A stretch of DNA of 64,000 nt from an uncultured Fibrobacterota bacterium (GTDB lineage Bacteria > Fibrobacterota > Chitinivibrionia > Chitinivibrionales > FEN-1185): positions 32,001-96,000 of the forward strand of contig CAVWBU010000021.1 in the NCBI GenBank assembly GCA_963753345.1, read 5' to 3'. This document shows, in pieces, positions 16,402 to 64,000 of this stretch. Position 1 is the first letter of the stretch, and every line of letters begins with the position of its first letter. Below the pieces are notes generated by a model. That model ran no database searches and had not been told where the DNA came from. It saw only the letters and a program-made list of their open reading frames with translations. Position numbers and translations under genes: made by a program.

Positions 16402-16402
16402 G

Positions 16403-21358: not shown

Positions 21359-21425
21359 TGAAGCGGCCGGGCGAGCGCGACCCTCTGTTTTTGGCTGCGG
21401 TGCAAAAGCCAAGCAAATAACATAT

Positions 21426-22046
21426 CTATTTTTGAAAAACGATCCACGTTCCTGTTTCCCCGCCATCCACGCTCCCTTTTATCCCGAGCTCGTTTAGAAC
21501 CGCCTGGTAATATTCCGGGGAGAATTTCTGCACGCGTTCTTTTCTTCGCTTTTTCCATTCTTCGTTATCGGCGTTGAATTCTTCTACTTCACGCAACAAT
21601 TCGGCGGAACCGAAACCACCACCGATGTAGGCCCAGCCTTTGGGTTTTAAGACCCGCATCACCTCGGAAAGCCCCTTTTTATGGTCTTCCCAGAAGAAGA
21701 TCGATCCGCGGGATGCTACGAGGTCGATGGAGTTGTCGGCAAAAGGCAATTCCTCGGCCCTGCCCTGGCGGGCGCTCATTCTTTTCGCAAGTGATCGAGC
21801 CGCGATATTCTCCCTGGCCACATCAATGCACTCCTGCAGAAGGTCGCATACGGTAACCTGCAAATCCGACTGTTCGGTCAGCGCGATTCCGAGCATGCCG
21901 GGGCCGCCGCCCAAATCGATGCATATGCCTTGTGTAACGCCTGTGCGCTCGATAATCTGCTTCGCTACTAAAGGATAGACCTTTGTCATGGGACCGCGCA
22001 AAGCAGAATCATTATACCTGCGCGCATCCATGTGAAAACTATTCAC
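21426..22046 (-). CDS. Class I SAM-dependent methyltransferase
   Basis: IDLGGGPG, AEELPFADNSIDLVASRGSIFFW, RVLKPKG; GTGA overlap with the SBP gene. Confidence 0.9.
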   Translation of the reverse strand: MNSFHMDARRYNDSALRGPMTKVYPLVAKQIIERTGVTQGICIDLGGGPGMLGIALTEQSDLQVTVCDLLQECIDVARENIAARSLAKRMSARQGRAEELPFADNSIDLVASRGSIFFWEDHKKGLSEVMRVLKPKGWAYIGGGFGSAELLREVEEFNADNEEWKKRRKERVQKFSPEYYQAVLNELGIKGSVDGGETGTWIVFQK

Positions 22047-23089: not shown

Positions 23090-23130
23090 CGTAAGACCCT
23101 CCTTGTATTGTTTTATTTTTTGCAAATCTG

Positions 23131-23162
23131 AAAAGAAGCCCCCCGCTTCAAACGCAGGGGCT
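23131..23162 (-). terminator. Putative intrinsic terminator after the TonB-dependent receptor
   Basis: GC-rich stem AGCCCC...GGGGCT followed by TCTTTT on the minus strand. Confidence 0.5.
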
Positions 23163-23217
23163 GTATTCAGACCTGCAAAATCCATAAATCATTTACAAAG
23201 GTATTTGAGTATCAATT

Positions 23218-25404
23218 TCAATCAATATTGAAATTCGTATGGAGGTTGACAAAGAACGTGCGTCCTTCCTCCGGATATCCTGCTTCTAGACAGTAGTTCT
23301 TGTCAAAGGCATTCCTTAGCCCCCCCTCAAGTGATGCGTTTGCACCCAGAGGAACATTTAATGATGCATTCCAGAGAATGAACTCGGGCACTGTGGATCC
23401 CTGGCTTGTCGTATAGCGCCATGTATCGTATTCTACGCTTACGAGGGCATAGCATCCGGTGATCGGCGTATACTTGACATATCCGAGACCTTTTCCCCGA
23501 GGTATATCGGTAAATTTGATCGCTGGGTGAGAGAGGTTGTGTTTGTTGAGATAGCTGCCGTTTGCGCCAATCTCTAACGCTTTCGCCCACTCGAGATCGT
23601 GAAGAACCGTAGCATCAAGACTCAGCTCAAATCCCGGCATTTCAGCTTCACCGGTATTCTGCATCTGTGACCGTGCATTTGCATCAAGTACACCCGCTTT
23701 AATCACGCTGTCAACCGACTGTATCGCATCATATAAATGCGTGTAGAAAAGGCTGACATGGCCGGCTAATGACCATGTTCCCATATTCAATCCTGCATCA
23801 TAGGCCGCCTCACAATTAACGGCATCTTCAGGCTGAAGAGTGGGATTGGGAATCGCGGTGCCCAACTTGTAGGAATATCGGTCTTTGAGCGTCGGGAACC
23901 TTGTCTTACGCGCTATCGATATGCTCGCATTTTGTGAACTACCGATATCAACTGCCGCCTTGCCCTCCGCATTAAACGCTTGGGCGTTGTTGCTGGGGAA
24001 AGGAACTATCGAGTCAAAAACATTCTGAAATATTTTGCCGTTGTAGTGAGAATAGAAATTGTCCGCTTCAACGCTTGACCGGTAGTCGTAAGAAATGCCT
24101 CCTGTCAAGTTAAGAATCTTCAGAATAGTGCCTCCGTCCTCCAAACCAATGGAAAACGTGTTGTCCTTGAAATGCCTCAAAGGCTCCGCCTGATACGGTT
24201 CGCTGTTGGCTACCTTGGCGGTGTCATAGACATTATGTTCTTGATGATAGTCTCGTTTGCCATGAAGAGCGAGACTCATCTCGTTTCCCGGGATAATAGT
24301 AGTACCGAGTTCAACGGCGCCGCCCGCCGTCCAGTCATCATAAGAGCTCATAAAAGAAGACCTTTTCTTGAATGTCGAATAGGTCGAATCGTCACAAGCG
24401 AAAAGGCTGTTGCTCAGTTCGTTATAATAGACCGGAACCTTGAGAGAAAAATCATTTGAAAGCATGGTTTTTGAAGACAGATAGACACTCTGTTTGTCCC
24501 AATAGGGCCAATACCAGTAGCGCACCATACCCGTGGGATCATCGGTCGGCGGGACACCCTTTTCTCCATGTTGATTATCATAGGAGAGTACATATTCATC
24601 ACCTGGCGCGGGATCCCACCCGATTTTTGCACTCGCTTTTGCATCACGGCGATATGAATTTGTGCGTAACCCGCTGCTCTGAAGCGCAGTTGGAGTAAAT
24701 GCTTTCGACAATTCATAATTGCCTTTGTCAAGATCAGAAATCGAGCCCATCAGAAAGAAATTACCCAATCGAGACCCTACGCCTATGTTAATGAGACTGC
24801 CGTTAAAATGGGGCATAAGCGTTGAGTCGCGCTTCGTATCGACATACCCCACAGTGCCCAAATCAGCTTGCAGCTCGAACTTGTGCACCGGTTTCCGGGT
24901 AACCAGATTGATCGCGCCGCCGATAGCATTTGGGCCGTAGAGCACCGAAGAATATCCTTTTTCAACCTTTATTTCCGAATAATCGAATGTCGTGAACCGG
25001 CCCAGATCGACATACCCGTCGTACGGCACATAAATCGGAACGCCGTCTATGTAGAGCGGAACCGACCGCAGATCAAATCCTCGGACATACACCTGCGACT
25101 CGTTTCTTGGACCGATATCGGAGACGTTTACTCCGGGAAGAAGCGAAAGTGCGCGGGCAACATCCGTGCGGTCAAATTCCTTCATTTGTGCACTGGTGAC
25201 AACATCCTTATTCTGTTGTTTTTTTTCGCTGCCTGTGACGACAACGGTTCCAAGCGAAAAGACCGATGATGTATCCGGCTTGAGTGCGCTGTCCTGCGGA
25301 CTTGTACTGGTGCCGTCAGCAGCGCTCGATAGAAATGCATTTACTATAAGGAATAGAGAAAACGGGACTAAAGAGTGATTGATTTTTTGGTGTACACGCA
25401 ACAT
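23218..25404 (-). CDS. TonB-dependent receptor
   Basis: TonB box-like TVVVTG; plug motifs VYVRGFD, LYIDGVP, IKVEKG..SVLYGPNAIGGAINLVT; C-terminal NAFDKNY..GYPEEGRTF. Confidence 0.93.
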   Translation of the reverse strand: MLRVHQKINHSLVPFSLFLIVNAFLSSAADGTSTSPQDSALKPDTSSVFSLGTVVVTGSEKKQQNKDVVTSAQMKEFDRTDVARALSLLPGVNVSDIGPRNESQVYVRGFDLRSVPLYIDGVPIYVPYDGYVDLGRFTTFDYSEIKVEKGYSSVLYGPNAIGGAINLVTRKPVHKFELQADLGTVGYVDTKRDSTLMPHFNGSLINIGVGSRLGNFFLMGSISDLDKGNYELSKAFTPTALQSSGLRTNSYRRDAKASAKIGWDPAPGDEYVLSYDNQHGEKGVPPTDDPTGMVRYWYWPYWDKQSVYLSSKTMLSNDFSLKVPVYYNELSNSLFACDDSTYSTFKKRSSFMSSYDDWTAGGAVELGTTIIPGNEMSLALHGKRDYHQEHNVYDTAKVANSEPYQAEPLRHFKDNTFSIGLEDGGTILKILNLTGGISYDYRSSVEADNFYSHYNGKIFQNVFDSIVPFPSNNAQAFNAEGKAAVDIGSSQNASISIARKTRFPTLKDRYSYKLGTAIPNPTLQPEDAVNCEAAYDAGLNMGTWSLAGHVSLFYTHLYDAIQSVDSVIKAGVLDANARSQMQNTGEAEMPGFELSLDATVLHDLEWAKALEIGANGSYLNKHNLSHPAIKFTDIPRGKGLGYVKYTPITGCYALVSVEYDTWRYTTSQGSTVPEFILWNASLNVPLGANASLEGGLRNAFDKNYCLEAGYPEEGRTFFVNLHTNFNID

Positions 25405-25462
25405 AGGAATCCTTTCAGAAAAGAGTGGTTGAAAATCCCCAGGGTAGTTGCCTGACAAATAG

Positions 25463-51658: not shown

Positions 51659-53074
51659 ATGAAAAAGTCCCGTATTTTTAAGTGGACCGGCTATGGTGTG
51701 CTCGCGGTACTGTTGCTGGGCGTTGCGATGTTTCTTTTTCTTAACAGAACCTCTTCATCAAAAATAGTTCTGGCTGATGAGGTTAAAGAGCATAGTATTA
51801 TGCTCCACAATGCGAACGGCGATCATGCGTGCGACTGTTTCCAGCCATGGATCTCGAAGGTTACGATTTCGAACATAACCTGTAATTCTATTGATGTCTC
51901 GTGGGCAAGCGGCACCTATGAAAACACGGCGGGTCCTGCAACCTATCAGGTGACATATGGTACAACTTCGGCCAAGGCCAGTATCTACCCGACTACACTG
52001 CCCACTACTGCGTATACCCAGTATACTGTTACCGTGCCAAACCTGACTGCCGGCACCCTCTATCACCTCGGAGTAAAAGGCTGTTGTTTGAGCAACTGTG
52101 ACAGAGGCGGCGGTCCTACCTACTGCAAAACAAGGGAGCAGAGTTCCGGCACGACTGATTGGACAGCCACCACCTTGGCGTCGTGCTCGGGCCATACCAT
52201 ATCAGGCATTGTCGGCACAACCGCATCCGGAAAACGCTTGGCAAAAACGGCCACGGGAATTACCGGGGTCCTCGTTACGTTGTCGGGCGGCGCTTCAAAA
52301 ACGATGACCACGGCGGCCGACGGGTCATACTCGTTTGCTGGTCTGGCACTGGGTACCTATACCGTTACCCCGACTAAAACCGGCATGATATTCACTCCTC
52401 CGAGCAAAACCTTTACCGCTTTGAATGCGGACTCGACCGGCAAGAACTTTATGGGAGTGGCGACAGCCGTACTGAACCCGGTATCGGAAACTGCCGTCAT
52501 GTCGGAAGTTGAAGCGGCGAAAATCACGGCATCAGACGTGACCGTCACCTGGAAGACGAACATACCCGCAGCCTCTTTGGTCGAATACGGTTTGACCAAG
52601 GACTATGGAATGAAAAGCGGAGTGAACGCAGAGCTGGTCTATAATCATTACATTCAATTGTTCGAACTCCAGAAAGGTGCCACGTATCATGCCCGGGCTG
52701 TTTCCTATGCGGAAGGCAATCCAACGGCAGTCTCGTACTCGTCGGATTTTACCTTCACCGTACCGTCAACCGAAAACAGAATATCGGATAGAACGCGCAT
52801 TTTGACTGAGCCCAATCCGGCTGCCCGCTGGACCATGTTCACGTACTATCTCTACCAGCCGGTCAAGAGCGTGAACATAGAAGTCCTTACGCTTTCGGGG
52901 AAACTTGTGGCGACCCTGGAAAGCCCTTCGAGCTCTCTGGCTGGAGGCTGGAACAAAGTAAGGTGGGACAACATCAATCTTTCAAATGGTCTGTATGTGT
53001 ACAGGATGGTATTTAAAACCCCCACCAATCTTCAAGAGCAATACAGCTTCTCCAACTTGAGGATAGAAAAATAA
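51659..53074 (+). CDS. Exported Cys-rich FN3 / prealbumin-like / FN3 protein with T9SS-like C-terminal domain
   Basis: N-terminal hydrophobic helix; NLTAGTLYH, ADGSYSFAGL..GTYTVTP, VTWKTN...VEYG, EPNP...LSNGLYVYR; SD GGAGG. Confidence 0.8.
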   Translation: MKKSRIFKWTGYGVLAVLLLGVAMFLFLNRTSSSKIVLADEVKEHSIMLHNANGDHACDCFQPWISKVTISNITCNSIDVSWASGTYENTAGPATYQVTYGTTSAKASIYPTTLPTTAYTQYTVTVPNLTAGTLYHLGVKGCCLSNCDRGGGPTYCKTREQSSGTTDWTATTLASCSGHTISGIVGTTASGKRLAKTATGITGVLVTLSGGASKTMTTAADGSYSFAGLALGTYTVTPTKTGMIFTPPSKTFTALNADSTGKNFMGVATAVLNPVSETAVMSEVEAAKITASDVTVTWKTNIPAASLVEYGLTKDYGMKSGVNAELVYNHYIQLFELQKGATYHARAVSYAEGNPTAVSYSSDFTFTVPSTENRISDRTRILTEPNPAARWTMFTYYLYQPVKSVNIEVLTLSGKLVATLESPSSSLAGGWNKVRWDNINLSNGLYVYRMVFKTPTNLQEQYSFSNLRIEK

Positions 53075-53107
53075 CCCGTGTAGGTTGCACAACAATACGC
53101 GTGCAGT

Positions 53108-53142
53108 TCCCCCTCGACTTCCTGTCGAGGGGGATTTTTTTT
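53108..53142 (+). terminator. Intrinsic terminator
   Basis: TCCCCCTCGAC-TTCCT-GTCGAGGGGGA followed by T8. Confidence 0.88.
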
Positions 53143-53186
53143 ACCGAAGTCGAAGCATGAAACGTCTGCTTTGACAGGGGCGAATA

Positions 53187-53588
53187 TCAAGCGGGGGAAT
53201 TGATGCGCTGGCGGATAAAATCGCTGATGAGGTCCTCGGCGCTGTTGTCGATAGTGACAAACGAGAGGCCGAACGTGACCGTGGTCGCCTTTGACGATGT
53301 CGCGCCGCGCAGGAAATAGGCGATGGTGGCGGTCGCGGCGATGGCCTTTGGGGTACCGGGAAGCTGGCACGAGAATTCGATGAGTATGTACTGGTCCACC
53401 AGCGTCTCAACCTGCGCCTCCGGCATCGGCGCGGTGACCTTCACGCCGCCCATGCTTAGATCGGCTGTGGAGCCGTTAATCCAGTCTGTTAGCGGTTTCG
53501 AAGTCTTTTCCTCGATCAATCGGAACCGGGCCGGTGCAACAACCTCTATCCTGAAGAACTTCCTGCGCTCTGCATTCGTCATCGCCAT
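53187..53588 (-). CDS. PilZ domain protein
   Basis: ERRKFFR and DLSMGG c-di-GMP motifs. Confidence 0.88.
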   Translation of the reverse strand: MAMTNAERRKFFRIEVVAPARFRLIEEKTSKPLTDWINGSTADLSMGGVKVTAPMPEAQVETLVDQYILIEFSCQLPGTPKAIAATATIAYFLRGATSSKATTVTFGLSFVTIDNSAEDLISDFIRQRINSPA

Positions 53589-53691
53589 AGGTGGTGCCCT
53601 TCTAAAATTGAAAAGCTACTGTTTCTTTGATTATATGAAAATGGGCTCGTGAAGTCAAGCCGATACCATTTACCACTTCTTTACCGCGCTA

Positions 53692-53809
53692 TTGAAGAAC
53701 CCCGCCCCAAGTGGCGGGGATTCTTCCATAGCTAAGGAAATAGAATAACAAATATTCGCCCGCTAACCGCGCGCCAAGTCGCGGGGAATGCGCGGGCTGT
53801 GCTATTCAA
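53692..53809 (-). mobile_element. Two-hairpin miniature element, copy 3 (diverged, opposite orientation, 113 bp net)
   Basis: TTGAAGAACCCCGCCCCAAGTGGCGGGGA...GCTAACCGCGCGCCAAGTCGCGGGGAATGCGC...TTCAA; overlaps the stop codon of the upstream gene. Confidence 0.8.
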
Positions 53810-54794
53810 ACAGTTCCTTCATTACATCGCCTTTTGCATACGGGGTAGGAATGTTGAAGAGAGTTCCCACGGTTCGACAGATATCGATAAGGGTTCTTTC
53901 TTTATTGGAAACGAAATTCTTCTTGATCCCAGGCCCGATTGCCAGGAGAAAAAGTTCCGTGCACCCCCGGCACTTGTCCCCATAGCCGTGGTAATCGTCG
54001 GTGTGCCTTCCGTGGACGCTCATTACCAGAAAAACCGTCTTGTCCTTATAGACGTCCACTTTCTGAATCCGGTCCCAGAGATCCCAGGTAATCTGATCCA
54101 TAAGGATTATCGACTCGTAGTAGGCATTCAGGCCAGCGGCACCGCCGCATGCATCCTTCTGACCCTTCAATGGGCATTCGGCAGCAAGTTCCTTCTCCGG
54201 TGTGAGCGTGCCGCCCCCGCCATTAAGGCTGAGATACACGAAAGCAGGGTGTTTTTCCATGATATGGGGCAGCGCCTTCTCATAGATCGCGTTTTCGTTT
54301 TCATCCTCCTTCTTGCTGGACTCAAATACCGGCGCATACTTTGCCCCGAACTCGGCGTGATCACTGCAGGTTAGAATTTCGAATGTAGACTTGCATGAGG
54401 CGAAATAACAGGGATTGCCGGGTTCCTTCTTGGCGCTGTTCCAGTATTCAAACAGGGTCGGGAAGGCGGGACGAATGGTTTCGCTGAACGGATTTTTAAA
54501 AACATGCCACACGCCGGTAAGAAGGCTCATCTGCGCCGGAATGGGCAGGGTGAGTTCGCGATTCTCGAACTTGGTGCAGATTGTCCCCAGAGGCCGGAGT
54601 TTGTTCCAGATATTGTCGATGTACAGGTGGTTCTTGTCGCCGAACGCATCGGAGTAGCGCGCGCCGTTCATCACGATGATGAACAGATTTTTGGCCTGGG
54701 ATTTCGCCGGAATGGACTGGTCGCCGGCGTTCGACGGCATGGCCGTTACAAGGAACGTCGCAATGAAAGGGAATAGTATTTTGGAGGGGATCAT
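53802..54794 (-). CDS. Exported alkaline-phosphatase-superfamily protein (degenerate motifs)
   Basis: NLFIIVMNGARYSD, SLLTG, PTLFEY, SVHGRH, LLAIGPGIK, IDICRT. Confidence 0.72.
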   Translation of the reverse strand: MIPSKILFPFIATFLVTAMPSNAGDQSIPAKSQAKNLFIIVMNGARYSDAFGDKNHLYIDNIWNKLRPLGTICTKFENRELTLPIPAQMSLLTGVWHVFKNPFSETIRPAFPTLFEYWNSAKKEPGNPCYFASCKSTFEILTCSDHAEFGAKYAPVFESSKKEDENENAIYEKALPHIMEKHPAFVYLSLNGGGGTLTPEKELAAECPLKGQKDACGGAAGLNAYYESIILMDQITWDLWDRIQKVDVYKDKTVFLVMSVHGRHTDDYHGYGDKCRGCTELFLLAIGPGIKKNFVSNKERTLIDICRTVGTLFNIPTPYAKGDVMKELFE

Positions 54795-54796
54795 AT

Positions 54797-55729
54797 TTAT
54801 TTGTTCTTGGTGAATATGGCCACTTCGGTTATTCTGTTTCTTCCGTCCTTTACTTTCAAGAGAATATCCTTGGTGAGAATGGGCTTTTCCAGGTCGAAGG
54901 TGATATGGTCGTCATGCCCGCTGTTTTCCACCTTGCCGGCCCATTGCAGCCTGTCGAACTGGTCGGTATACCCTAGTTCGCAATTGAACATAACGTTCTT
55001 CTTTTTCAAGCTGTCCGCCACGGTATACACTGTTACCCTGTAGATATCCTGCAGTTTCGGCAAGGTAATTTCAGCCATGAGCAGGGCGACCGGTTTCGTC
55101 GTCACATCTCGCTCAAATATCTCGCCGAAATAGGTGGTGTTGTCAGCGGTGTCGGCTTCTGTTTTCCCGTCAATAATCTGTTTTATGCGCAGCTTGTCTG
55201 TCCTGTTGGTGGTATTGACCGTAATACAGTCTGCACTTCTCATATTGTCACAGCAGAGGCAATGTCCTCCGACCACGTATTCACCCCACCCGGTGGCGCG
55301 GATTTTTTTGTCCGTCAAAACGATATTCGTCAACCCCTTCATATCAACGCCGGGGTTCGTTGGAGGTGATTCTTTTTGAACGACGGTTTTGTTTTTTGAG
55401 AGCGAATCCCCTTGAGCCGGCATGCCTTCCTTTGCAGTCGAATCGCTCGCGGCCATGAGTTTTATTTTCGAAAGCGAATCCTCCTGGGCCGCGACCCCTG
55501 CACAGAAAAACCAAAGGAACACGGCAAACGAGGCCGCCGCGAGCAATGAGACGGGTGCCGCGGGCTTAAGCGTGCAACCAACCTCCGGCGATTGAATCCC
55601 ACAGCGAGCGCATTCCCCGAAGGTTGCTTCGGGGTTAGCGAGCGAATACAAATATTTCTTCTTCCATAGGGATGGAAGGATTCCCCGCAGCTTGCTGAGG
55701 GGACCTTCAATAAGTGAAAATGTTTTCAC
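54797..55729 (-). CDS. Exported hypothetical protein with in-frame element in its N-terminus
   Basis: Signal peptide h-region follows the 38-aa element peptide; HCLCC motif; adjacent to neighbouring genes. Confidence 0.7.
   Translation of the reverse strand: MKTFSLIEGPLSKLRGILPSLWKKKYLYSLANPEATFGECARCGIQSPEVGCTLKPAAPVSLLAAASFAVFLWFFCAGVAAQEDSLSKIKLMAASDSTAKEGMPAQGDSLSKNKTVVQKESPPTNPGVDMKGLTNIVLTDKKIRATGWGEYVVGGHCLCCDNMRSADCITVNTTNRTDKLRIKQIIDGKTEADTADNTTYFGEIFERDVTTKPVALLMAEITLPKLQDIYRVTVYTVADSLKKKNVMFNCELGYTDQFDRLQWAGKVENSGHDDHITFDLEKPILTKDILLKVKDGRNRITEVAIFTKNK
55592..55710 (+). mobile_element. Two-hairpin miniature element, copy 4 (114 bp net, in frame)
   Basis: Encodes IEGPLSKLRGILPSLWKKKYLYSLANPEATFGECARCGIQ on the minus strand. 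Confidence 0.92.
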
Positions 55730-55731
55730 TA

Positions 55732-57195
55732 TTACAGTTCCTTTTTTTGAGATCCCCAGTCCTCCCAGGTCGCCCCATTATCCCTGCTTGTTTTTAAGAA
55801 TATCCTTGACCATTCGGTTTTGTCTTTCGGTACATCAAACCAGAATACATGCAATAATCCGGAAGCGGTCCTCGTTATGATGGGATTATTATGGCTTCCG
55901 ACATCCGAGGTAAGTTCCTTTTTTTCCTTGAGGACATTTCCTGCGGGATCGATCTCGCCGTAGGAGACAATCGACTCGCCTCCCAAAAAGCTTGCCCACG
56001 TAAAATGGAGATTGCCGTCTTTGTCAAACACCACCGACGGGCGTTTCGGGGACCTCTTCTCCAGAGGATAGAGGTTCCTCCCGGTGATGGGACATTTGTC
56101 CGTTGCGGGATCGAACCGGGCGTAAAAAATCTCGCCGAGCTGTATATTGCGCCTGTCAAGCCAGAAAAGGTAGGACAGGGAACCGTCCGAAAGCATTATG
56201 GGATTGTCAATTTCCTCTTTGGTTTCCTTGGCGACCTTGGTCTTCGATACAATCTGCTCGTCACCCCAGCTGCGGCCGTTGTCATTGCTCTTCCGAAGCA
56301 CAACGGAAGAAACCATATCCTCATTGCCCTTCCAGAGCCCGACCCCGTTCCACCCCAAACTCAGTCCCTTTTTATCCTCCTTGAAATCGGTCCACACCAC
56401 GACCAGTTCATTGCCGGTGCATGCAATGGCCGGCGGATAGCAATAGCATGAATGCTTGCCCACTTTTCCCAGAAGCATCTCTTTTTCCCAGGTTAAACCC
56501 CGGTCGCGGCTGGCCTTGAAATAAACCTTGTTTTCTACGTCCTGCCATATCAGATACACATTGTCTTCCTTGCAGGCAAGCAACGGATAACGCGCGCTGT
56601 TGGCATCGGTGATGAGGATGCGGTTCTTTTCCCATGTTGCTCCTCTGTCAAGACTTCGGGAGTAGTAGAGCTCCCCGTCCACCCTTTCGCCGTAATCCAC
56701 CCATGCCACGTGTACAATACCCGAATTCACTGCCATTGCAGGAGGATAACAATCCGCCTTTTCATTGCTTAACTTCCGGGCGCTTGTCCATTCTTTTCCC
56801 TCGTCGGCGCTCCGCCGGTAATAGATGCTTGCCGTCACTCCCTCCGTAACAACCCATGTCATGTGGATGTTATTTCCCTCCGAGACGACGGCGGGGTATC
56901 TGCAGTCTCCGGCCATGGAAATAAAGGCCGAGGCTGAGTCGGTTTTTTTCGCAGGTAGGGAGGCGGAGGCCGAATCGGCTCTTTTCATGGATGCCAAGGC
57001 TGAAGCGGAGTCTGCCGCCAGGCAGATGACGGCCAAGACCATGATCAGGAAACAGGTTTCAATCCCACAGCGAGCGGATTCCCCGAAGCTTGCTTCGGGG
57101 TTAGCGAGCGAATACAATTTATTCTTCTTCCCTAGGGATGGAAGGATTCCCCGCAGCTTGCTGCGGGGTCCTTCAATACAGGTCCGAAATCTCAT
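55732..57195 (-). CDS. Exported BNR/Asp-box (sialidase-like) repeat protein with in-frame element
   Basis: Five S-x-D-x-G-x-x-W boxes. Confidence 0.8.
   Translation of the reverse strand: MRFRTCIEGPRSKLRGILPSLGKKNKLYSLANPEASFGESARCGIETCFLIMVLAVICLAADSASALASMKRADSASASLPAKKTDSASAFISMAGDCRYPAVVSEGNNIHMTWVVTEGVTASIYYRRSADEGKEWTSARKLSNEKADCYPPAMAVNSGIVHVAWVDYGERVDGELYYSRSLDRGATWEKNRILITDANSARYPLLACKEDNVYLIWQDVENKVYFKASRDRGLTWEKEMLLGKVGKHSCYCYPPAIACTGNELVVVWTDFKEDKKGLSLGWNGVGLWKGNEDMVSSVVLRKSNDNGRSWGDEQIVSKTKVAKETKEEIDNPIMLSDGSLSYLFWLDRRNIQLGEIFYARFDPATDKCPITGRNLYPLEKRSPKRPSVVFDKDGNLHFTWASFLGGESIVSYGEIDPAGNVLKEKKELTSDVGSHNNPIITRTASGLLHVFWFDVPKDKTEWSRIFLKTSRDNGATWEDWGSQKKEL
57058..57176 (+). mobile_element. 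Two-hairpin miniature element, copy 5 (114 bp net, in frame)
   Basis: Encodes IEGPRSKLRGILPSLGKKNKLYSLANPEASFGESARCGIE; removal gives the signal peptide MRFRTCIETCFLIMVLAVICLAA. Confidence 0.92.
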
Positions 57196-58276
57196 TATTA
57201 ACCTCAGGCAATTTGCCGTTCTTATTAAGAAATCTTTCCAGCAACTCGTTCTCTCTCATGGTATACATACCATGCTCTTCGAATCGGAAGAAACGGGCCT
57301 TTTCCACGGATTTATATTTTTCGTGCAGGTCCTTGCGTATATTGTCGGCGCCTCGAATATAAATTATCTCCTGCTTTTCGTCGAACAGCTGGTAGACGCC
57401 ACTCACTTCGGGAACTTTTTTAATATTCTCTTCGGTTAATGCAAGGTCATCCTCCGGCGGCAGTATGACAGGCGCGAGCTTCAGTTCCGCTTTCTTTTTC
57501 CATGCCAGCCCTTTGTCCATCAGAGCGCCTGTAGGGCAAACTACAACGCAGGCGCCGCAGAACACGCACCCTGATTCCTTATGGGAAGGACCCAAAGTCC
57601 CCATAGCAAACTCGCCGTTATGAAAGGTGAAGCCAATGACCCGTTTTCCCTGCATCTTCTCGCACGCACGAACACAACGGGCGCATCCTATGCAGAGATT
57701 GCCGTTGTTGGAAAAAAAAGGTGTGTCCACGACAGGAACTTTCTTGAACACGTATTGCGAAACATCTTCTTTGATGGTAACATATTCACACACGCTCTGG
57801 AATTCACAATCATCGAATTTGGAACAGCATCGGCCTTGCATTTCTACGCCCATGGAGCACTCTTCCCGCTCACAGCCTTCCCTTTCTGCGCAAAGAAGAC
57901 ATGCATGAGGATGAAGAGAGAGTATTCGCTCCAGGTTATCTCTTCTTATTTCTTTTACCGCAGCGGTGTTTGAATAAATTACCATGCCATCTTCAACGAG
58001 CGTGGCGCAGGATGGAGAAGGACCTCTCCCCTTGATCTCGACGATGCAGATATTGCATCCATCATATGTTTGGTGATTTTCATTCCTGTCCGCGATGATT
58101 CCACCGTTCCGAAATACCCTGGCGTCGGCCTTTGTTCCCGGCCCTGGCGGTAAATCCGGATGATAACAAAGTCGGGGAATGTAGATCCCCGCTACATCTG
58201 CCGCCTCGATAATCGAAGCCCCCTCTTGGGTATGGACTTCATGATTATCAATTGATATGGTTATTTCTTTTCCCAC
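57173..58276 (-). CDS. BzdV-like 2Fe-2S/4Fe-4S electron-transfer protein without flavin domain
   Basis: IYIPRLCYH, CNIC, SCAT, HPHACLLC, CIGCARCVRAC, CVFCGACVVVCP, C-terminal PEVSGVYQL...MYTMRENELL. Confidence 0.75.
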   Translation of the reverse strand: MGKEITISIDNHEVHTQEGASIIEAADVAGIYIPRLCYHPDLPPGPGTKADARVFRNGGIIADRNENHQTYDGCNICIVEIKGRGPSPSCATLVEDGMVIYSNTAAVKEIRRDNLERILSLHPHACLLCAEREGCEREECSMGVEMQGRCCSKFDDCEFQSVCEYVTIKEDVSQYVFKKVPVVDTPFFSNNGNLCIGCARCVRACEKMQGKRVIGFTFHNGEFAMGTLGPSHKESGCVFCGACVVVCPTGALMDKGLAWKKKAELKLAPVILPPEDDLALTEENIKKVPEVSGVYQLFDEKQEIIYIRGADNIRKDLHEKYKSVEKARFFRFEEHGMYTMRENELLERFLNKNGKLPEVNNEISDLY

Positions 58277-58545
58277 GTGGCGACAATAGCCCCTTTTTTA
58301 CAGGATTGCGCACAATGGATTTCTTTCTTCTGGTGACAGGAGGCGCAGGTATATTGGATTTTCTTCCGATGCTCCTCATGGACCACGGCCACCTGCTTAT
58401 CCTCTATATCAATCATCACCGTATCGATTTTCAGCGCATTTTGAGGACATTTCTCAATACAGATTTTACACGCATCGCATTTTTCGGCGTCGATGCTTAC
58501 ATAATACTTGCCCGAACCGTCTTGATATCCGTAATGAATAATCAT
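58261..58545 (-). CDS. BzdM-like ferredoxin
   Basis: YGYQDGSGKYYVSID..KCDACKICIEKCP...YTCASC...C...C..GAI..TW. Confidence 0.8.
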   Translation of the reverse strand: MIIHYGYQDGSGKYYVSIDAEKCDACKICIEKCPQNALKIDTVMIDIEDKQVAVVHEEHRKKIQYTCASCHQKKEIHCAQSCKKGAIVATWEKK

Positions 58546-58566
58546 ACGAACTACGCTTCCCTTTTG

Positions 58567-60282
58567 TTATGCTTTCTGTTCTTTTTCGTACAGCGCCTTG
58601 GAAAAGAGGGCAGCCCCGATGGCGCCTGCCGACTGAGGATCCAATTCACGGCTCTTATTCGGCAGCGGGAGGCAATTGAAACCATTGAGCTTTTCTATCC
58701 TCTTTACAATCCCCACATTCTTGGATTGACCGCCGGTGATGACAAAATCCGGTTCGATACCTACCTTGTTCAGCAATTCATGCATTCTTTGAGACATGGC
58801 ATTACAATACGATGCCAGTACCATTTCCTTGGTCCATCCCTTTCGCAAAAGCGATACCGCCTCGGACTTGGCAAAGACGACGCAGGTCGAACTCACCGGA
58901 GGCGGATCTTTCTCGACCATCAAAGAGTGCGCACCAACTTCCTGGATAGGCACGGATAAAAGGTCTGCAATTACTTCCATTCCTCTTCCCGTACCTGCCG
59001 CGCATTTATCATTCATAAGAAACGAGGTTATCTTGCCCTTTTCGTCAATACGGATGGCTTTGATATCCTGGCCGCCCACATCCAATACGGTCTTCACCGA
59101 AGGTCCCCAGATATATGACGCACCCCTTCCATGGCAGGCGATTTCCGTGATCGCCTTTTTTGCCATGGGGACATTTACTCTTCCATACCCTGTTCCCACG
59201 ATATAGTGGATATCTTTTTCCGTAAGTCCGGTGCCCTCCAAAGCCCAGTTCAATACGTTCCTTGCACTGTCGGGGCTGTTTGAACCTGTCCGCATTACGC
59301 TCCAGGTATAGAGCTCTCCATCGAGCATGACCGCGGCCTTGGAACCCACCGAACCAACATCAATCCCTGCGGTGATCACCTTGGCCTTTTTGGGATCCAT
59401 TCCCTCTACGGTTTTTCTGTATTCCGGCCATCTCCAATATTCTTTTTTTACCCCTTTTCCATTGTCACCATCACCAAGCTCTACCTTGGGCAACGAAATA
59501 ACACGGTCTTCAATATGCTCCAAGGACGAGGAAAGCGCTGCCCCCAATGCCGAAGCAAACTCCGGTTCTTCCGGAATGAACAGGTCTACCCCTAATTTTT
59601 TCTTAAGAGAACTGACCAGGCCAACGTCTTTGGCTACTCCTCCCATGAGTACAACATCAGGATTTATGCCTAACCTTCTGACCATGGAAGAGATTCTATC
59701 GGACATGGCGTCGTAGACAGCCCTCGCAATATCTTCTTTTGCAGTTTTTTGATGAATCAAGGTTACAACCTCAGATTCACCGAAGATAACACACTGGGCA
59801 TTCATGGGGATCGCCTTGTCCGACTTGAGCGAGAGTGCACCCATTTCTTCCAGCTTAAGCTCAAGCGCCCTGGTCATGGCCTCGATGAATGCACCTGCGC
59901 CCGCCGCGCAGCGGTCATTTGCCACGAAATCCGCTATATTCCCTTTCTCATCGCACTTGACCGCTCTCGCATCCTCTGCGCCCACATCGATCACAGTTCT
60001 CGCCTTTGGGAATAAATAGGTGCCTGCCTTGGCCATGGCGCGCACCATGCTCACCTTTCCCGTGGCATGCGAGGTCATTTCGGCGTTGACGCCGGTGGCA
60101 ATGATTTGTTTTATATCGGATTCCGCCAGGCCGCCCTGCGCTATGGCCTTGCGTATCGCATCACTGGCGGAGACCGACGGATCGAACCCGGTGGGTACCA
60201 CGCTCTTGGCAACGATTTTTCCATCATTGACAATCACTACCTTTACGTTTCTTGCACCTACATCGATTCCCGTGCTGATCAT
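58567..60282 (-). CDS. Two-domain ASKHA ATP-dependent activator (BzdP-BzdQ-like fusion; BadF/BadG/BcrA/BcrD family)
   Basis: Two GIDVG; NDRCAAG/NAQC and NDKCAAG/SSTC; TGYGR; YWRWPE segment. Confidence 0.88.
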   Translation of the reverse strand: MISTGIDVGARNVKVVIVNDGKIVAKSVVPTGFDPSVSASDAIRKAIAQGGLAESDIKQIIATGVNAEMTSHATGKVSMVRAMAKAGTYLFPKARTVIDVGAEDARAVKCDEKGNIADFVANDRCAAGAGAFIEAMTRALELKLEEMGALSLKSDKAIPMNAQCVIFGESEVVTLIHQKTAKEDIARAVYDAMSDRISSMVRRLGINPDVVLMGGVAKDVGLVSSLKKKLGVDLFIPEEPEFASALGAALSSSLEHIEDRVISLPKVELGDGDNGKGVKKEYWRWPEYRKTVEGMDPKKAKVITAGIDVGSVGSKAAVMLDGELYTWSVMRTGSNSPDSARNVLNWALEGTGLTEKDIHYIVGTGYGRVNVPMAKKAITEIACHGRGASYIWGPSVKTVLDVGGQDIKAIRIDEKGKITSFLMNDKCAAGTGRGMEVIADLLSVPIQEVGAHSLMVEKDPPPVSSTCVVFAKSEAVSLLRKGWTKEMVLASYCNAMSQRMHELLNKVGIEPDFVITGGQSKNVGIVKRIEKLNGFNCLPLPNKSRELDPQSAGAIGAALFSKALYEKEQKA

Positions 60283-60303
60283 TGTAATCAATGCTCCTTT
60301 GGA

Positions 60304-61641
60304 TTAATAGAGGTCATCGGTTGAAGTTTTTGTCGCCAGCATCTCAAGAAAGGCCTCGATTCGGGTCTTCATCTGACCGCTGTCTTCGCGGCTGTATTCC
60401 GTATCGAGGTAGTATATCGGAATGTGCTCTTTTTCGAACAGACGCTTGAGGCGCAGATATTCCATGGCATACAGATGACAACCGCGTATGACATGATAGA
60501 TCACGCCGCTGATCTTGTAGTCCTTTACCAGGGTTTGCAGCTTGTCGATCCTGTCCTGGTTCCCGTCTTCCGAGGTGAAACAGGGGCAGGTGCACGGCAG
60601 AATATATCGTTCCGCAATTGCCTTCAGCATATCACCGGCTGACCCTTCATCAACCCCTACGGGATCGTAGAATATCCGGTCGCCGGAGCAGAATTCATCC
60701 GCAACAATCAAACCCTGCGGTTTTGATTCTTCAATCAGATTGGGAATTTTCCAGCAATCCGGCCAAATCATCGGAGAACCGGTGAGGAGAATCCTTGGTG
60801 TGTCCAGCGGAGCAACGTATGCCTTTTCGGCAGCTTTCTTTTCGAGTTCGTCACAAAGCTGGTTGGTCTTTTCCGTCCATCTCGCAAGATCGTCAAAATA
60901 GCTCATCTGGTCCACCAGCATCGCATCCCTTCCGGAAATGAGAGGAGCGCCTTTCCGTAAATCCAGTAATCGGCGAGATGCCGCTGTTGCCGCCAGGGTC
61001 GTTTTTATTGCAGTACGCATTGCTTTTCTGGTTATCGATTTGCCCGTGAGCTTTTCTATCTTTTCCTTTACCTCTTTTACCTGGTCCAGCCAATAGCGTT
61101 TCGCCTGCGGAGTATCCTTTACTCTGGGCACATTCATCTCCCATACGGGAAACGCATCGGTCAAAATCTCGCACACCTTTGTCTTTCCGTCGCACGTATT
61201 CGGGGAGATGATGACGTCACACATTTCAAGATAGGGATACAGATCCGCCATTGCCAGACCGATCATGGATCTGACGACGGGGCAGACCTCCACCGGAACG
61301 ATTCTATCGCCTATCTTGCTCGGCGTGTAGAATCCCGAATCAATGCGAACAGGAATGGCGCCTGCGGCCAGGATAAGTTCAACGGGCGCCAACATGCAGG
61401 CAAAGCCGATCACCTTGCCTCCCTGCGCTTTAAAATCACGGATTTCTTTTTCCCTTTGGCCGAAAAAATCCGCCGCCTGGTCGAAATATTCCATGGCTTT
61501 GGGCCGGTTCGGGACAAGTCTCATCTTCTCAATATTTTCAGCGACGGTCTTCTGAACACCGGCCTTGAATGCCTTTTGCAGCTCGTCCTTCTCTTCTGGG
61601 GCAAGCGTAGGAAGATATTTTGGATCGTTGTTGGTTTTCAC
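60304..61641 (-). CDS. 2-hydroxyacyl-CoA dehydratase family protein, double-cubane-cluster (DCCP/YjiM) type
   Basis: GFAC, VCP, TCDGK, EFCSG, CTCPCF, GCHLY Cys pattern; TEYS..D.GQ.KTRIEAFLE. Confidence 0.82.
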   Translation of the reverse strand: MKTNNDPKYLPTLAPEEKDELQKAFKAGVQKTVAENIEKMRLVPNRPKAMEYFDQAADFFGQREKEIRDFKAQGGKVIGFACMLAPVELILAAGAIPVRIDSGFYTPSKIGDRIVPVEVCPVVRSMIGLAMADLYPYLEMCDVIISPNTCDGKTKVCEILTDAFPVWEMNVPRVKDTPQAKRYWLDQVKEVKEKIEKLTGKSITRKAMRTAIKTTLAATAASRRLLDLRKGAPLISGRDAMLVDQMSYFDDLARWTEKTNQLCDELEKKAAEKAYVAPLDTPRILLTGSPMIWPDCWKIPNLIEESKPQGLIVADEFCSGDRIFYDPVGVDEGSAGDMLKAIAERYILPCTCPCFTSEDGNQDRIDKLQTLVKDYKISGVIYHVIRGCHLYAMEYLRLKRLFEKEHIPIYYLDTEYSREDSGQMKTRIEAFLEMLATKTSTDDLY

Positions 61642-62640
61642 CGAGACTTCTCCTTTTGCAATTTAGGTACTTTCACCGCACTTGACTGTAAAAATCTCTT
61701 GTATTTTGACCGAGCGATCGGAAACTTAAAGAGACCGACTTTCAATGCGTCTTTCTCCGGGCACATTTCAACACAGCGGAAACATAAGGTACAATCAGAG
61801 GAGGCTATCTTCTCTTTCTCTTTTTCTTCGTACACCTCCGTGACCTGTACGGGGCAGCTCCTTTGGCAAACACCGCACTTGGTACAGCGTTTCCCTTCCT
61901 TGCGCAGTGAAAGAAAAGAAAACCTGTTGAATAATCCGAGGACAGCCCCCATGGGACAAAGCCTGCACCACATCCTTCGTATAAAAGAGGTGGTGAGCAG
62001 ATAAAAAATAAAAACGCCAATTGCCAGGTAGGACATCACGGTGGACAAGGAACTGATGGTATCCACCGTCAACATTTCCTTGAATCTTCCTTCAACAAAA
62101 GGGGAAGATTTGCTTGCTCGGGCAGATTTGACAAAAAGGGGTAATGAGGTCGGCTTGATAGGCCTTTAAGAAAAAATGCGGAATACCAATGCCCACAGCG
62201 ATACAAACGAGGGCAATTACAAAGAACCATTTAACAAATACTGATGACAGTTTCAAATTATCCGATAAGTTGTAATAGCCTATTCTCAGATATTTTCGAA
62301 TGCGGATGAACAAATCCTGTACGAATCCCAACGGGCAGACCCAGGAGCACCATGCGCGCCCAAAGATCAAGCCGAGAATTATCAAGAGTAGTAAAGGGGC
62401 GAGCAAATCGATATAATGGGTCTTCCACCCTGCGGCAAACCCCTCCTGCAGGGAACGTAAAAAGCATTGGGCTATCCGGTGATTTGTATAGTAACAGCTC
62501 AACGTGGGAATTACCAGGGTGATGCTTTTCCACGCGATCTCTCTTACCCCCAAATAGCCAAGGTAAACAATAAGGAAGAAAAAGATTACCTGAGCAGCAA
62601 ATTTCAACCTTGTTATTTTAAGCATATCAGTTACCGCCAT
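61638..62640 (-). pseudogene. Membrane 4Fe-4S protein (NapH/MauN/FixG-like) split by a 1-nt frameshift
   Basis: GRAWCSWVCPLG, FCQICP in 62092..62640; WCRLCPMGA, CTKCGVCQRSCP, CTLCFRCVEMCP in 61638..62075; one extra T in CCCCTTTT. Confidence 0.78.
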
Positions 62641-63553
62641 TCAGGAAGAAATCATCTATCATTGTTGCATCCTTATCCACCCGCGGGGTGGGGAAGCCGA
62701 GAATCTTGCCCACCGTCGGGCAGACATTAATCTGTCGCCATTTGTTTTCCGTCGAATAATTTTTCTTGATATCGGGACCTAACGCCACTATAACCAGATA
62801 CCTTTTACATTCGTCATCACAATCCTGCTGCAAAAGAATATCGCCATGGTCATTGAGAAAGAAAAAATCCGTTTTATCCTTGTAGACCGGATCCGCCTGG
62901 ACCGCCATCCAGATTCTGTATATGTGATCATCCATCTCCTTGAGCTGCCTCCGATAGCGGACCATATCTTCCGGCACCTGCTTCTTGTTAAAGCTGTGTG
63001 CGCCGCCCAGAATGACAAAGACAAGCTGGGGATGGTTCGCTTTCATATATGCGGTGAGTTTGGTATAGAGTTCTTCATCATTGTTTTTTTCTTTTGTGAA
63101 TTCGGCGGTGGCGCCAAAATTTTCACCATACTCTTCACTGTTGCTGTACGTCAGGAAATTAAGCTCTTGCTTGCTGGTGATGAAATAGCATGATTTCTTG
63201 TCCTTCCCCAGGCCTTTACGAAAGTACTCAAATATAGTAGGTTGATCCGGAATGTCATCCTGGTTTGAACGCCGGAGATCTTTCCAGGAACCGGTGATTA
63301 TGGCCAGATGAACCAGGGCCATGTAGGAAGGATTCCCATAGAAGGTGACACAGCGACTGGCGTTCGGAACCATGTCGTTCCAGAGATGAGGCACATATTG
63401 GTGGGTCTTGTCGCCAAAGGATTCATCATGCCGGAATTGGTCGCCGACTACAATAAAAACATTCTTCGCTTTAAACTCGCCATATGCATAATTTCCATTT
63501 ATAAGAAGAAAAGGCAATAGTAAAAGTAAAAAGCGTTTGATCGTCACCCTCAT
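62627..63553 (-). CDS. Exported alkaline-phosphatase-superfamily protein
   Basis: NVFIVVGDQFR, AIITG, PTIFEY, LNDHG, ALGPDIK; paralog of 53802..54794. Confidence 0.72.
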   Translation of the reverse strand: MRVTIKRFLLLLLPFLLINGNYAYGEFKAKNVFIVVGDQFRHDESFGDKTHQYVPHLWNDMVPNASRCVTFYGNPSYMALVHLAIITGSWKDLRRSNQDDIPDQPTIFEYFRKGLGKDKKSCYFITSKQELNFLTYSNSEEYGENFGATAEFTKEKNNDEELYTKLTAYMKANHPQLVFVILGGAHSFNKKQVPEDMVRYRRQLKEMDDHIYRIWMAVQADPVYKDKTDFFFLNDHGDILLQQDCDDECKRYLVIVALGPDIKKNYSTENKWRQINVCPTVGKILGFPTPRVDKDATMIDDFFLNGGN

Positions 63554-64000
63554 TTCTTTCCCTTCTGCTGTTGATTGGTTTTTACTGCCAGCGGGATGAA
63601 TGCCGGTCTATGATATTTTTCTATGCCGAACTCGCCGATGTATTTCTGAACGTCGGGAGAAGTCAAAAAGCCGATGAACTGCATCGCCGTCACATAATTC
63701 GCTTTTGGGAATCTCTCAGGATTTATCGCCATGACGTCGTAATTCGTGAACAGTTTCGTGGTATCCTCCACCATGACCGCCAGATCGATCGTCTCCAGCA
63801 TCTCTTTGTAAGAAGCCCATTGGGAAATAGTGTAGGCCTTTTTCCTCGCAGCAATGTTCAATGTCTCCGAGGTCCCTACCTTGGTCTTGATATACCAGTC
63901 ACCCTCGGGGTTTATTTTGGCCATCTTCCACATCCTCATTTCCAAACCGTGGGTGCCGGATGAATCCGCCCGTGAACAAAAGTTTGATTTTGTTGCAGCG
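63550..64000 (-). CDS. TupA-like substrate-binding protein paralog (5' end outside the window)
   Basis: FCSRADSSGTHGLE, EDTTKLFTNYDVMAINP; close match to the C-terminal half of 19634..20509. Confidence 0.85.
   Translation of the reverse strand, partial: AATKSNFCSRADSSGTHGLEMRMWKMAKINPEGDWYIKTKVGTSETLNIAARKKAYTISQWASYKEMLETIDLAVMVEDTTKLFTNYDVMAINPERFPKANYVTAMQFIGFLTSPDVQKYIGEFGIEKYHRPAFIPLAVKTNQQQKGKK

Follow-up and report, generated by a model that had tools for sequence, protein, structure and literature searches.

Double-cubane proteins (DCCPs) are nitrogenase-like, ATP-driven reductases, and their natural substrate has been unknown since 2018 (PMC7317905, PMC9351452, PMC11971306). Here we describe a DCCP operon on the minus strand at the end of a 64,000-nucleotide stretch of DNA from an uncultured Fibrobacterota bacterium (the window; G000:C21:32001-96000, with a further 17 kb past the window end fetched as L003). 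The operon encodes a DCCP, an integral membrane iron-sulfur (Fe-S) protein resembling NapH, an ATP-dependent activator, soluble electron carriers and a series of exported proteins. The window contains a new Fibrobacterota variant of a membrane-linked DCCP system. We give a probability of roughly 0.55 to the reading that the operon specifies a membrane-docked, ATP-driven double-cubane reductase system serving a process outside the cytoplasm. The conserved, clade-specific partners of this DCCP, namely the membrane Fe-S protein, the exported protein AP1 and further exported proteins, make the question of DCCP function testable.

The DCCP of Carboxydothermus hydrogenoformans and its reductase DCCP-R (structures 6ENO and 7YYL; Jeoung and Dobbek) are the first point of comparison. 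Like the C. hydrogenoformans protein, the DCCP of the operon (g07) belongs to the same fold family, has the six cysteines of the [8Fe-9S] cluster and a long N-terminal extension, and is encoded next to an ASKHA-type ATP-dependent reductase, here g08, which begins 12 nt downstream. Unlike the C. hydrogenoformans protein, g07 has Asp in place of a seventh Cys and scores just under the cut-off of the double-cubane model NF040772. Instead of a homodimeric DCCP-R there is a fused P/Q pseudo-heterodimer, and the g07 gene is linked with those for a NapH-like protein, a ferredoxin, an Fe-S wire and exported proteins. Six-Cys DCCPs have been described before: the class III DCCPs of Firmicutes likewise have six ligands and no seventh Cys (PMC7317905). 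In class III, however, DCCP and reductase make up a single chain of some 550 amino acids, whereas here the DCCP stands alone and the two reductase subunits are fused.

The class I benzoyl-CoA reductases of the Bzd/Mbd type (BzdNOPQ with BzdM; structures 8S02 and 9GAI) share with the operon a P/Q-type ATPase pair and a dedicated ferredoxin encoded beside it. BzdN also carries an [8Fe-9S] cluster, which is used as a relay, and BzdNO has been proposed to descend from a DCCP-like ancestor (PMC11971306). By contrast, our genome has no BzdO-type subunit and no second HGD-D gene, the ATPase subunits are fused, membrane and exported partners are present, and no gene of a benzoyl-CoA pathway was seen among the 31 scanned open reading frames (ORFs) of the window and its flank. 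With NapH/MauN/NosR-type Fer4_5 ferredoxins the membrane protein of the operon has in common four helices, the motifs C-x3-C-P and C-x2/3-C-P, and a C-terminal cytoplasmic 2x[4Fe-4S] domain. It differs from E. coli NapH in two enlarged outer loops and in its partner, which is a DCCP and not NapG, NapC or NapA. A literature search, with supplements outside its scope, found no report of a link between NapH and DCCPs. In a preprint, DCCPs are linked to SelD and to a selenoprotein locus (10.1101/2022.07.06.499078); general scans showed no such locus here.

The original prediction had recognized a double-cubane cysteine pattern in g07 and set the protein apart from BzdN/BzdO and dehydratase subunits, and both points are borne out. 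g07 scored 344.2 bits on NF040772 (cut-off 350), close to its clade mates (331-343) and below the canonical Fibrobacterota DCCPs (462-469) and E. coli YjiM (531). Scores on the other models were 110.9 for BzdN (cut-off 454), 99.2 for HadC (cut-off 700), 67.4 for BcrC and 23.8 for BzdO (cut-off 449). Its best match of solved structure was the C. hydrogenoformans DCCP (6eno/7yyl; E 1e-79, 272 bits, residues 43-435), followed by BzdN (3e-29) and HadC (1e-14). The six ligand cysteines (C82, C120, C150, C318, C352 and C388) match the DCCP ligand motifs in alignment, at the spacing of the family, and are invariant in 27/27 aligned relatives. The seventh Cys, Cys94 in the C. hydrogenoformans protein, is not a cluster ligand and lies at the opening over the cluster (PMC7317905). 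This position, Asp in g07, has lost its Cys in 20/20 members of the clade with P/Q-type activators (the P/Q clade), whereas 5/7 of the other NapH-linked DCCPs that were aligned retain it. The whole genome, 94% complete, has a single PF06050 match, g07 itself. There is therefore no N/O or alpha/beta partner, neither within the window, as had been noted before, nor just outside it, and g07 is a stand-alone DCCP. Judged by its sequence, g07 is a divergent DCCP, neither a benzoyl-CoA reductase nor a dehydratase subunit, and by homology it is predicted to bind an [8Fe-9S] cluster.

The gene for the NapH-like protein is the most constant neighbor of the DCCP gene. We collected 10 loci from a scan of a genome collection and 37 from a metagenome scan and set each of these loci against the 13 proteins of the operon. 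Among loci with at least 1 kb of upstream sequence, some of which are duplicates of one sequence, the NapH-like gene was directly upstream of the DCCP gene in 31/35 and present anywhere in the locus in 32/35. An activator gene was directly downstream of the DCCP gene in 28/33. The tie between membrane Fe-S protein and DCCP that had been suspected earlier thus extends well beyond the window, and a structure prediction agrees with it. A complex model of one DCCP chain with the NapH-like protein, built from alignments of 27 and 17 rows, respectively, reached an ipSAE of 0.73 (runs at 0.73, 0.73 and 0.72), against 0.00 for the best of three controls. The runs shared at least 89% of contacts, with a partner pLDDT of at least 78. 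The ipSAE mark applied is reached by 116/157 solved complexes and 2/215 mismatched pairs, counts that hold only roughly for models made with our own alignments.

On the NapH-like side, the modelled interface comprises both 4Fe-4S motifs (at 244-256 and 283-289), together with the tail at the C terminus (308-320) and cytoplasmic loop 2 (111-122). On the DCCP side, it comprises residues 176-178, 209-223, 326-349 and 362-370, a stretch that leads into ligand Cys352. DCCP-R docks on the twofold axis of DCCP, touching the C-terminal helix and N111 (PMC9351452). This surface differs from the modelled NapH site, so that the contact would lie away from the docking site of the activator. The model supports binding of the DCCP to the predicted cytoplasmic Fe-S domain of the NapH-like protein.

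The NapH-like protein comprises Fer4_5 and 4Fe-4S dicluster domains. On the NapH/MauN model (TIGR02163, cut-off 213) the two fragments annotated in the window scored 32.3 and 67.6 bits and an intact homologue (L004:9018-10001) 95.8 bits. Alignments and hydropathy indicate four helices in the intact protein, with C-x3-C-P after helix 2, C-x2-C-P after helix 4 and two C-terminal 4Fe-4S motifs. Since the Fe-S domain must be cytoplasmic, loops 1 and 3 are predicted to face outward. Each of these loops has a Cys pair, C44/C54 in loop 1 and C165/C168 in loop 3, the latter within P-F-C-x-I-C-P, and on reading of the alignment both pairs are kept in 15/17 family members. E. coli NapH, which is 25% identical, has neither pair, and its third loop is short.

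The genes of the operon, as assigned by Pfam and NCBIfam scans of the ORFs in window and flank, are as follows (window numbering).

66828-67412 (outside the window), minus strand: g01, 194 aa, exported, no family.
64435-66828 (outside the window), minus strand: g02, 797 aa, putative outer-membrane protein, no family.
63550-64410 (63550-64000 in the window), minus strand: g03, TupA-like periplasmic binding protein, 286 aa, of which the C-terminal 149 aa are in the window.
62627-63553, minus strand: g04 (AP1), 308 aa, exported, predicted sulfatase/alkaline-phosphatase fold.
62092-62640 and 61638-62075, minus strand: g05 and g06, one NapH-like integral membrane Fe-S gene as two ORFs.
60304-61641, minus strand: g07, 445 aa, HGD-D/double_cubane protein (DCCP), six-Cys type.
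58567-60291, minus strand: g08, fused two-domain ATP-dependent activator ('archerase'), BcrAD_BadFG in two stretches, 312 bits.
58261-58545, minus strand: g09, 94 aa, 2x[4Fe-4S] ferredoxin (Fer4 families).
57173-58276, minus strand: g10, soluble Fe-S 'wire' with Fer2_4, NuoG/HoxU-like 4Fe-4S and C-terminal DUF7508 domains.
55732-57195, minus strand: g11, exported BNR (sialidase-like) beta-propeller; BNR_2 55.8 bits, BNR_4.
54797-55729, minus strand: g12, exported, no Pfam or NCBIfam match, CBM32/discoidin-like C-terminal domain.
53802-54794, minus strand: g13 (AP2), 330 aa, exported paralogue of AP1; Sulfatase 20.2 bits (cut-off 25).
55592-55712 and 57058-57178 (93% identical), with a degenerate inverted copy at 53716-53809: 121-nt dispersed repeat.

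The original prediction had counted ten tightly packed minus-strand genes from 53802 to 64000. The packing is indeed tight, with junctions of -23 to +21 nt, but there are 11 ORFs in this interval, the membrane Fe-S gene being split, and the operon comprises 13 genes and extends about 2.9 kb past the window end, up to a divergent gene at the operon start. Alignment with L004, L017 and L019 attributes the split to one extra T in a T-run near 62094. In all relatives the gene is a single ORF of about 330 aa, and a 2977-nt contig of the peat run X1, which covers 60336-63313, is one letter shorter at 62094. A near-identical population thus carries an unbroken NapH-like gene, and the split is likely due to an assembly error or a strain variant.

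The activator g08 has two ATPase halves of different affinity. Its C-terminal half (281-570) scored 499 bits on TIGR03192 (BzdQ; cut-off 380.2), and its N-terminal half (5-253) scored 229 bits on the BcrD model (cut-off 313). Matches to solved structures were HadI (217 bits), MbdQ (193.5) and DCCP-R (139) for the C-terminal half and MbdP (108) for the N-terminal half. By inspection, both halves preserve their two cluster cysteines as well as the ATP motif G-I-D-V-G. These features identify g08 as a fusion of a P-like (N-terminal) and a Q-like (C-terminal) ATPase into a pseudo-heterodimer, so that the resemblance to P and Q noted by the original prediction stands. The P and Q units are separate adjacent genes in the Bathyarchaeia relatives and in locus L024. 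A Q-type unit from a Bathyarchaeia metagenome-assembled genome (MAG) of the Thermoproteota (L005:6751-7659) also passes TIGR03192, with 384.8 against 380.2 bits. Activators of stand-alone DCCPs therefore pass the BzdQ model, and TIGR03192 is not specific to benzoyl-CoA reductase.

The picture of a hybrid with Bzd is thus only partly right. The Bzd-like activator is real, but it is a trait of a whole DCCP clade that includes Bathyarchaeia. The further proposal, that a DCCP took over the Bzd electron-delivery chain, does not hold up well, since P/Q activators and the ferredoxin are common to the Bathyarchaeia sister clade. With P/Q shared by Bathyarchaeia, an [8Fe-9S] cluster in BzdN and a DCCP-like ancestry proposed for BzdNO, common descent accounts for the resemblance no less well than a takeover would. 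The P/Q clade falls under the double-cubane cut-off yet passes the BzdQ model, and its members are accordingly named as parts of benzoyl-CoA reductase or dehydratase. In peat and sediment metagenomes, such genes can be misread as anaerobic aromatic degradation.

Two soluble Fe-S proteins are encoded after the activator. The ferredoxin g09 has an eight-residue insert in its second cluster motif (C-x2-C-x8-C-x3-C), which we take to be the pattern of Allochromatium-type low-potential ferredoxins, and a ferredoxin gene follows the activator in window-type, L024 and Bathyarchaeia loci. g10 matches Fer2_4 (52 bits), DUF7508 (26.9), the HoxU model (110), NuoG (95.8) and Fer4_Nqo3. Family scans found neither a flavin nor an NAD(P)H domain in it, and g10 would therefore be a wire and not an NAD(P)H oxidoreductase. 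It is 63-81% identical in at least 8 loci, and L024 has a 35% identical homologue with DUF7508. The DUF7508 match overlaps N-terminal models of UvrC and also occurs in E. coli and three other control genomes; the domain is therefore GIY-YIG-like and not a Bzd marker. No long protein with the C-terminal domain of g10 was found at E<=0.001, which is weak evidence.

Gene order recurs elsewhere; none of the three outcomes that the original prediction had named as fatal to it was observed. The whole order g01-g02-(g03)-AP1-NapH-DCCP-activator-ferredoxin-wire-BNR-g12-AP2 is found in L004 (a Fibrobacteres MAG with the same sequence as L015), L016, L017 and L019, and a partial order on shorter contigs (L014, L018, L021, L022, L023, L036, L040, L041 and L042). 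DCCPs of these window-type loci are 75-93% identical. L004, L016-L019 and L023 have conserved counterparts of both g01 and g02, and L024 has one of g02. L024 differs in its flanks and its gene order, its DCCP is 61% identical, and this DCCP lies 7 kb from the AP1/NapH-like pair. Nevertheless, L024 retains the DCCP, P, Q, ferredoxin, DUF7508 wire, a g02-like protein (33%), AP1 (50%), the NapH-like protein and two BNR genes; it is independent support for conservation of the gene set. In L025, an AP2-like gene adjoins the DCCP, an activator and DsbD_2.

Within the phylum, 27/296 Fibrobacterota genomes had a DCCP-like match. The window type was confined to G000, G062 and G064 (86-93% identity), 3/6 genomes of genus g1, and the other 24 DCCP-like proteins were 27-39% identical to that of the window. 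Of these 24, nine were examined at the level of the locus (G026, G027, G079, G080, G004, G073, G050, G295 and G049; loci L055-L063), and all nine encode a DCCP with one activator. These canonical DCCPs are 35-38% identical to g07; the NF040772 scores of 462-469 bits given above are those of three of them. No NapH-like gene was found within about 1.3 kb upstream in these nine loci. Two DCCP types appear to coexist in Fibrobacterota. Several further DCCP matches of the phylum scan have an in-frame TGA.

After the window type, the next relatives of g07 are those of Bathyarchaeia, at 57-61% identity. In a quick maximum-likelihood tree of 37 rows with SH-aLRT supports, all NapH-linked DCCPs (27/27) fell on one side of a branch with 98% support. 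On the other side were E. coli YjiM and the nine canonical DCCPs of Fibrobacterota, none of which has a NapH neighbor. The 20 six-Cys DCCPs with P/Q-type activators formed one group (99%), with the window type, L024/L025 and Bathyarchaeia as subgroups. The patchy distribution fits lateral acquisition.

Loci of Bathyarchaeia, Desulfovibrionales, Lentisphaerae and Methanobacteriota have the same core of NapH-like protein, DCCP and activator together with lineage-specific exported proteins. As envelope partners, Bathyarchaeia have CARDB surface proteins and DsbD_2, whereas Desulfovibrionales have a signal-anchored protein, DsbD_2 and a TonB-dependent receptor; Lentisphaerae have a propeller with an HZS-alpha middle domain, and Methanobacteriota a PQQ_2 propeller. 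In Lentisphaerae bacterium WC36 (L011), a cultured organism whose genome is complete, the genes are arranged as NapH-like, DCCP, activator, DsbD_2. The core is constant and the envelope-facing shell varies. The DsbD_2/CcdA-like genes of the other lineages are weakly ArsG- or DsbD-like, and BLAST and Pfam scans found none in the window-type operon. The Fibrobacterota variant is set apart by this absence, by the P/Q fusion, by the HoxU-like DUF7508 wire, and by an exported set consisting of a sulfatase-fold pair, a BNR propeller, a CBM32-like protein and an outer-membrane protein. In a Methanobacteriota MAG, a 232-aa membrane protein with a His-/Lys-rich loop and no Pfam match is encoded upstream of the NapH-like gene (L009:8271-8969); it looks like a metal transporter, in place of the DsbD_2 of other lineages.

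Five to seven proteins of the operon are exported or located in the outer membrane. AP1 and AP2 are paralogues (phmmer E 1e-40). An AlphaFold2 model of AP1 (pLDDT 77.8, pTM 0.81) gave 281 Foldseek matches in the PDB at E<=0.001, headed by LtaP/LtaS, carbohydrate sulfatases and the phosphoethanolamine transferases MCR-1/EptC (E 1e-8 to 1e-6, TMq 0.5-0.59, 10-15% identity). AP1 itself has no Pfam match, and 14/20 AP family members match PF00884 at E<=1, the best at 1.4e-11. AP1 and AP2 are thus predicted to have the alpha/beta core fold of the alkaline-phosphatase superfamily. The formylglycine motif C/S-x-P-x-R of true sulfatases was not seen in the AP1/AP2 alignment. By inspection, a Ser/Thr column and an H-G column are conserved, and the first acidic metal ligand is kept in AP1 and replaced in AP2. 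A Cys pair follows the H-G motif, as C-x3-C in AP1 and C-x2-C in AP2. The AP1 gene lies directly upstream of the NapH-like gene in 13/13 loci that hold both, the rearranged L024 included.

g12 has a signal-like N terminus, a D-S-L-S-K-rich linker and, in an alignment of seven sequences, the invariant motif G-W-G-E-Y-x-V-G-G-H-C-L-C-C-D-N...D-C. Features of its C terminus match F5_F8_type_C (CBM32/discoidin-like) clusters of the ESM Atlas at 0.93. The structure model of g12 is poor (pLDDT 54.9, below 50 in the region of the Cys motif), and only its C-terminal beta-sandwich could be compared. This low-confidence model aligns with CBM32 modules at VIA Z 8-9 over 108-115 residues (root mean square deviation 2.7-3.5 Å). 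The BNR protein g11 is conserved in at least nine loci, with two copies in L024 and a second copy in L041. The C-terminal residue of g02 is aromatic, as in outer-membrane barrels. In the ESM Atlas, g02 matched unnamed clusters and one DUF6029 'TonB-dependent receptor-like beta-barrel' cluster (0.93), which serves as a lead only.

In the mechanism that we propose, the ferredoxin and the Fe-S wire would hand electrons from cellular donors to the [4Fe-4S] cluster bridging both ATPase halves, and ATP hydrolysis would drive them into the double cubane. The NapH-like protein would hold the DCCP at its cytoplasmic 2x[4Fe-4S] domain, with the contact beside Cys352 of the DCCP, and the double cubane and the NapH-like protein would exchange electrons. 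We further suggest, tentatively and at somewhat below even odds, that the double cubane works as a relay or store at low potential and gives electrons outward through the NapH-like protein to the exported proteins. From the Cys pairs in the outer loops, reducing power could then reach those exported proteins that bear Cys motifs (sulfatase-fold, propeller and CBM32-like). We favor outward flow because no importer is encoded and every accessory gene is extracytoplasmic, because the NapH-like protein has gained Cys sites on its outer face, and because the AP1 and NapH-like genes remain together in a rearranged gene order. The absence of a cysteine at the cluster opening throughout the P/Q clade and the precedent of BzdN for a double cubane used as a relay (PMC11971306) point the same way. 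More specifically, a double cubane charged by ATP hydrolysis with electrons well under the usual biological range of potentials, together with the NapH-like conduit, might support ultra-low-potential chemistry at an exported enzyme of the alkaline-phosphatase fold in the periplasm, a compartment devoid of ATP, though we regard this as a rather unlikely refinement. A phosphorus or sulfur oxo-ester or oxyanion as the target would suit the fold and the peat habitat, and is pure conjecture.

A number of observations weigh against our interpretation. No result fixes the direction of electron flow, which is our proposal. The exported proteins showed no recognizable site for a redox cofactor, with no CxxCH on reading of the sequences and no Tat-type Fe-S protein among them, and the sulfatase, BNR and CBM32 folds are commonly associated with the hydrolytic processing of glycans, for which no reductant is required. 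The modelled NapH surface may overlap the DCCP homodimer interface, as a single DCCP chain was modelled, and the NapH-like gene is frameshifted in the window assembly itself, though intact in the X1 contig. The loci were retrieved with peptide patterns derived from the query, so that the sample leans to relatives, and several window-type loci have flanking synteny in common, which makes them kin and not independent samples. Finally, the long N-terminal extension by which the CoA channel is closed is retained in g07, a feature that suits a small-molecule site better than a pure relay, and the C. hydrogenoformans DCCP is itself a catalyst that reduces acetylene, azide and hydrazine with ATP (PMC7317905).

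The last two points also favor the strongest alternative, in which the DCCP is the terminal catalyst acting on a small molecule that is membrane-permeant or locally released and the NapH-like protein is an anchor or the donor of a first electron. We consider this possible but distinctly less probable than a process outside the cytoplasm, and we are equally doubtful of its corollary, that the exported proteins make or capture the substrate outside and that the NapH electron is of higher potential. In its favor, g07 retains all six ligands in addition to the extension, and for a small molecule without charge the lack of an importer would be no obstacle. A mixed electron supply is conceivable, since BzdNO takes up its first electron above -450 mV and requires far lower potentials for those that follow (PMC11971306). 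However, the loss of the seventh Cys at the cluster opening in the whole P/Q clade argues against a terminal catalyst, and neither the Cys pairs on the outer face of the NapH-like protein nor the linkage of AP1 to NapH in the rearranged L024 would be explained. A role of the NapH-like protein as a quinol-dependent donor is weakened further by the Bathyarchaeia relatives, for which, to our knowledge, quinol use is not known.

Capture of an oxyanion or metal(loid) species by the TupA-like g03, followed by its reduction at the DCCP, had been suggested by the original prediction and now seems improbable. TupA is the sole NCBIfam match of g03, at 131.9 bits against a cut-off of 400 (Pfam: PBP_like_2, 81 bits, and SBP_bac_11). 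A paralogue of g03 (75% DNA identity, 403 nt) heads a ModABC-type importer at window 15517-20509, with ModA at 178 and ModB at 206 bits, both past their cut-offs, and a 441-aa gene of no family between; the orphan g03 might share this permease. The operon itself encodes no permease or inner-membrane importer, however, and g03 is variable: complete copies are found in the window, L018 and L019, L016 retains a 58-aa remnant, and the gene is missing from four distinct window-type operons that cover its position (L004/L015, L017, L021 and L023) as well as from L024 and all archaeal loci. Nor does regulation point to an oxyanion. No riboswitch or other RNA family was found in window 53000-64000 at E<=0.1, and 16 related loci yielded at gathering score no riboswitch, that of the molybdenum cofactor included, and one tRNA only. 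A cobalamin riboswitch was not seen in L010 or L011. A ModE box, which had been thought worth seeking beyond 64000, was not apparent: upstream of g01 no ModE-like palindrome was obvious by eye, and one weak promoter-like site and one hairpin there were both within shuffle expectation.

More improbable still is that the redox module and the exported proteins are unrelated neighbors, in other words that a set resembling a polysaccharide-utilization locus lies beside a DCCP cassette. The sulfatase-fold, BNR, CBM32-like and outer-membrane proteins do resemble a glycan-processing set, and most window-type loci are close kin with common flanks. Against this, L024 keeps the same set with other flanks and in another order, L025 keeps an AP2-like gene beside the DCCP, and in the operon the AP1 and NapH-like genes overlap by 14 nt and the NapH-like and DCCP genes by 4 nt. 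The database label of a benzoyl-CoA reductase or 2-hydroxyacyl-CoA dehydratase component, which is carried by relatives of g07 in their source names ('BcrC/BadD/HgdB' or '2-hydroxyacyl-CoA dehydratase') and echoed by the BzdQ match of g08, is already contradicted by the single PF06050 gene without an N/O or alpha/beta pair, the BzdN and HadC scores (111 against 454 and 99 against 700 bits), the complete double-cubane ligand set and the lack of CoA-pathway genes among the scanned ORFs, and can be set aside.

Near-identical DNA is present in metagenome runs from peat, freshwater sediment and soil, six of which hold at least half of the sampled words, and the full gene set recurs on peat and sediment contigs, once rearranged. 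Contigs from RNA libraries of two wetland runs from two studies, 90-95% alike, covered 27/30 and 24/30 bins of 58500-63600, a stretch that spans the activator, the DCCP, the NapH-like gene and AP1. Such contigs show neither strand nor level, the libraries may contain DNA, and uncovered parts do not indicate silence; the coverage is a hint that relatives of the operon are transcribed.

The 121-nt repeat has 43 matches across many contigs of the genome and no Rfam match, and its inverted arm past the last operon gene is 72% complementary to the direct copies. The apparent overlaps of g10 with g11 and of g11 with g12 are ORF extensions through this repeat. The true starts of g11 and g12 are uncertain as a consequence; their annotated 5' ends, with about 40 residues in common, are probably not real protein, and g11 probably starts near 57042, past the repeat. 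Beside the ModABC-type cluster, window 20663-25458 encodes a TonB-dependent receptor (Plug, 746 aa), a Peripla_BP_2 protein and two SAM-methyltransferases. Convergent to the operon end, window 51659-53074 (plus strand) encodes a protein of 471 aa that carries fn3, SdrD_B and purple-acid-phosphatase N-terminal domains and is syntenic in L004, L014, L016, L017 and L019 (46-74% identity).

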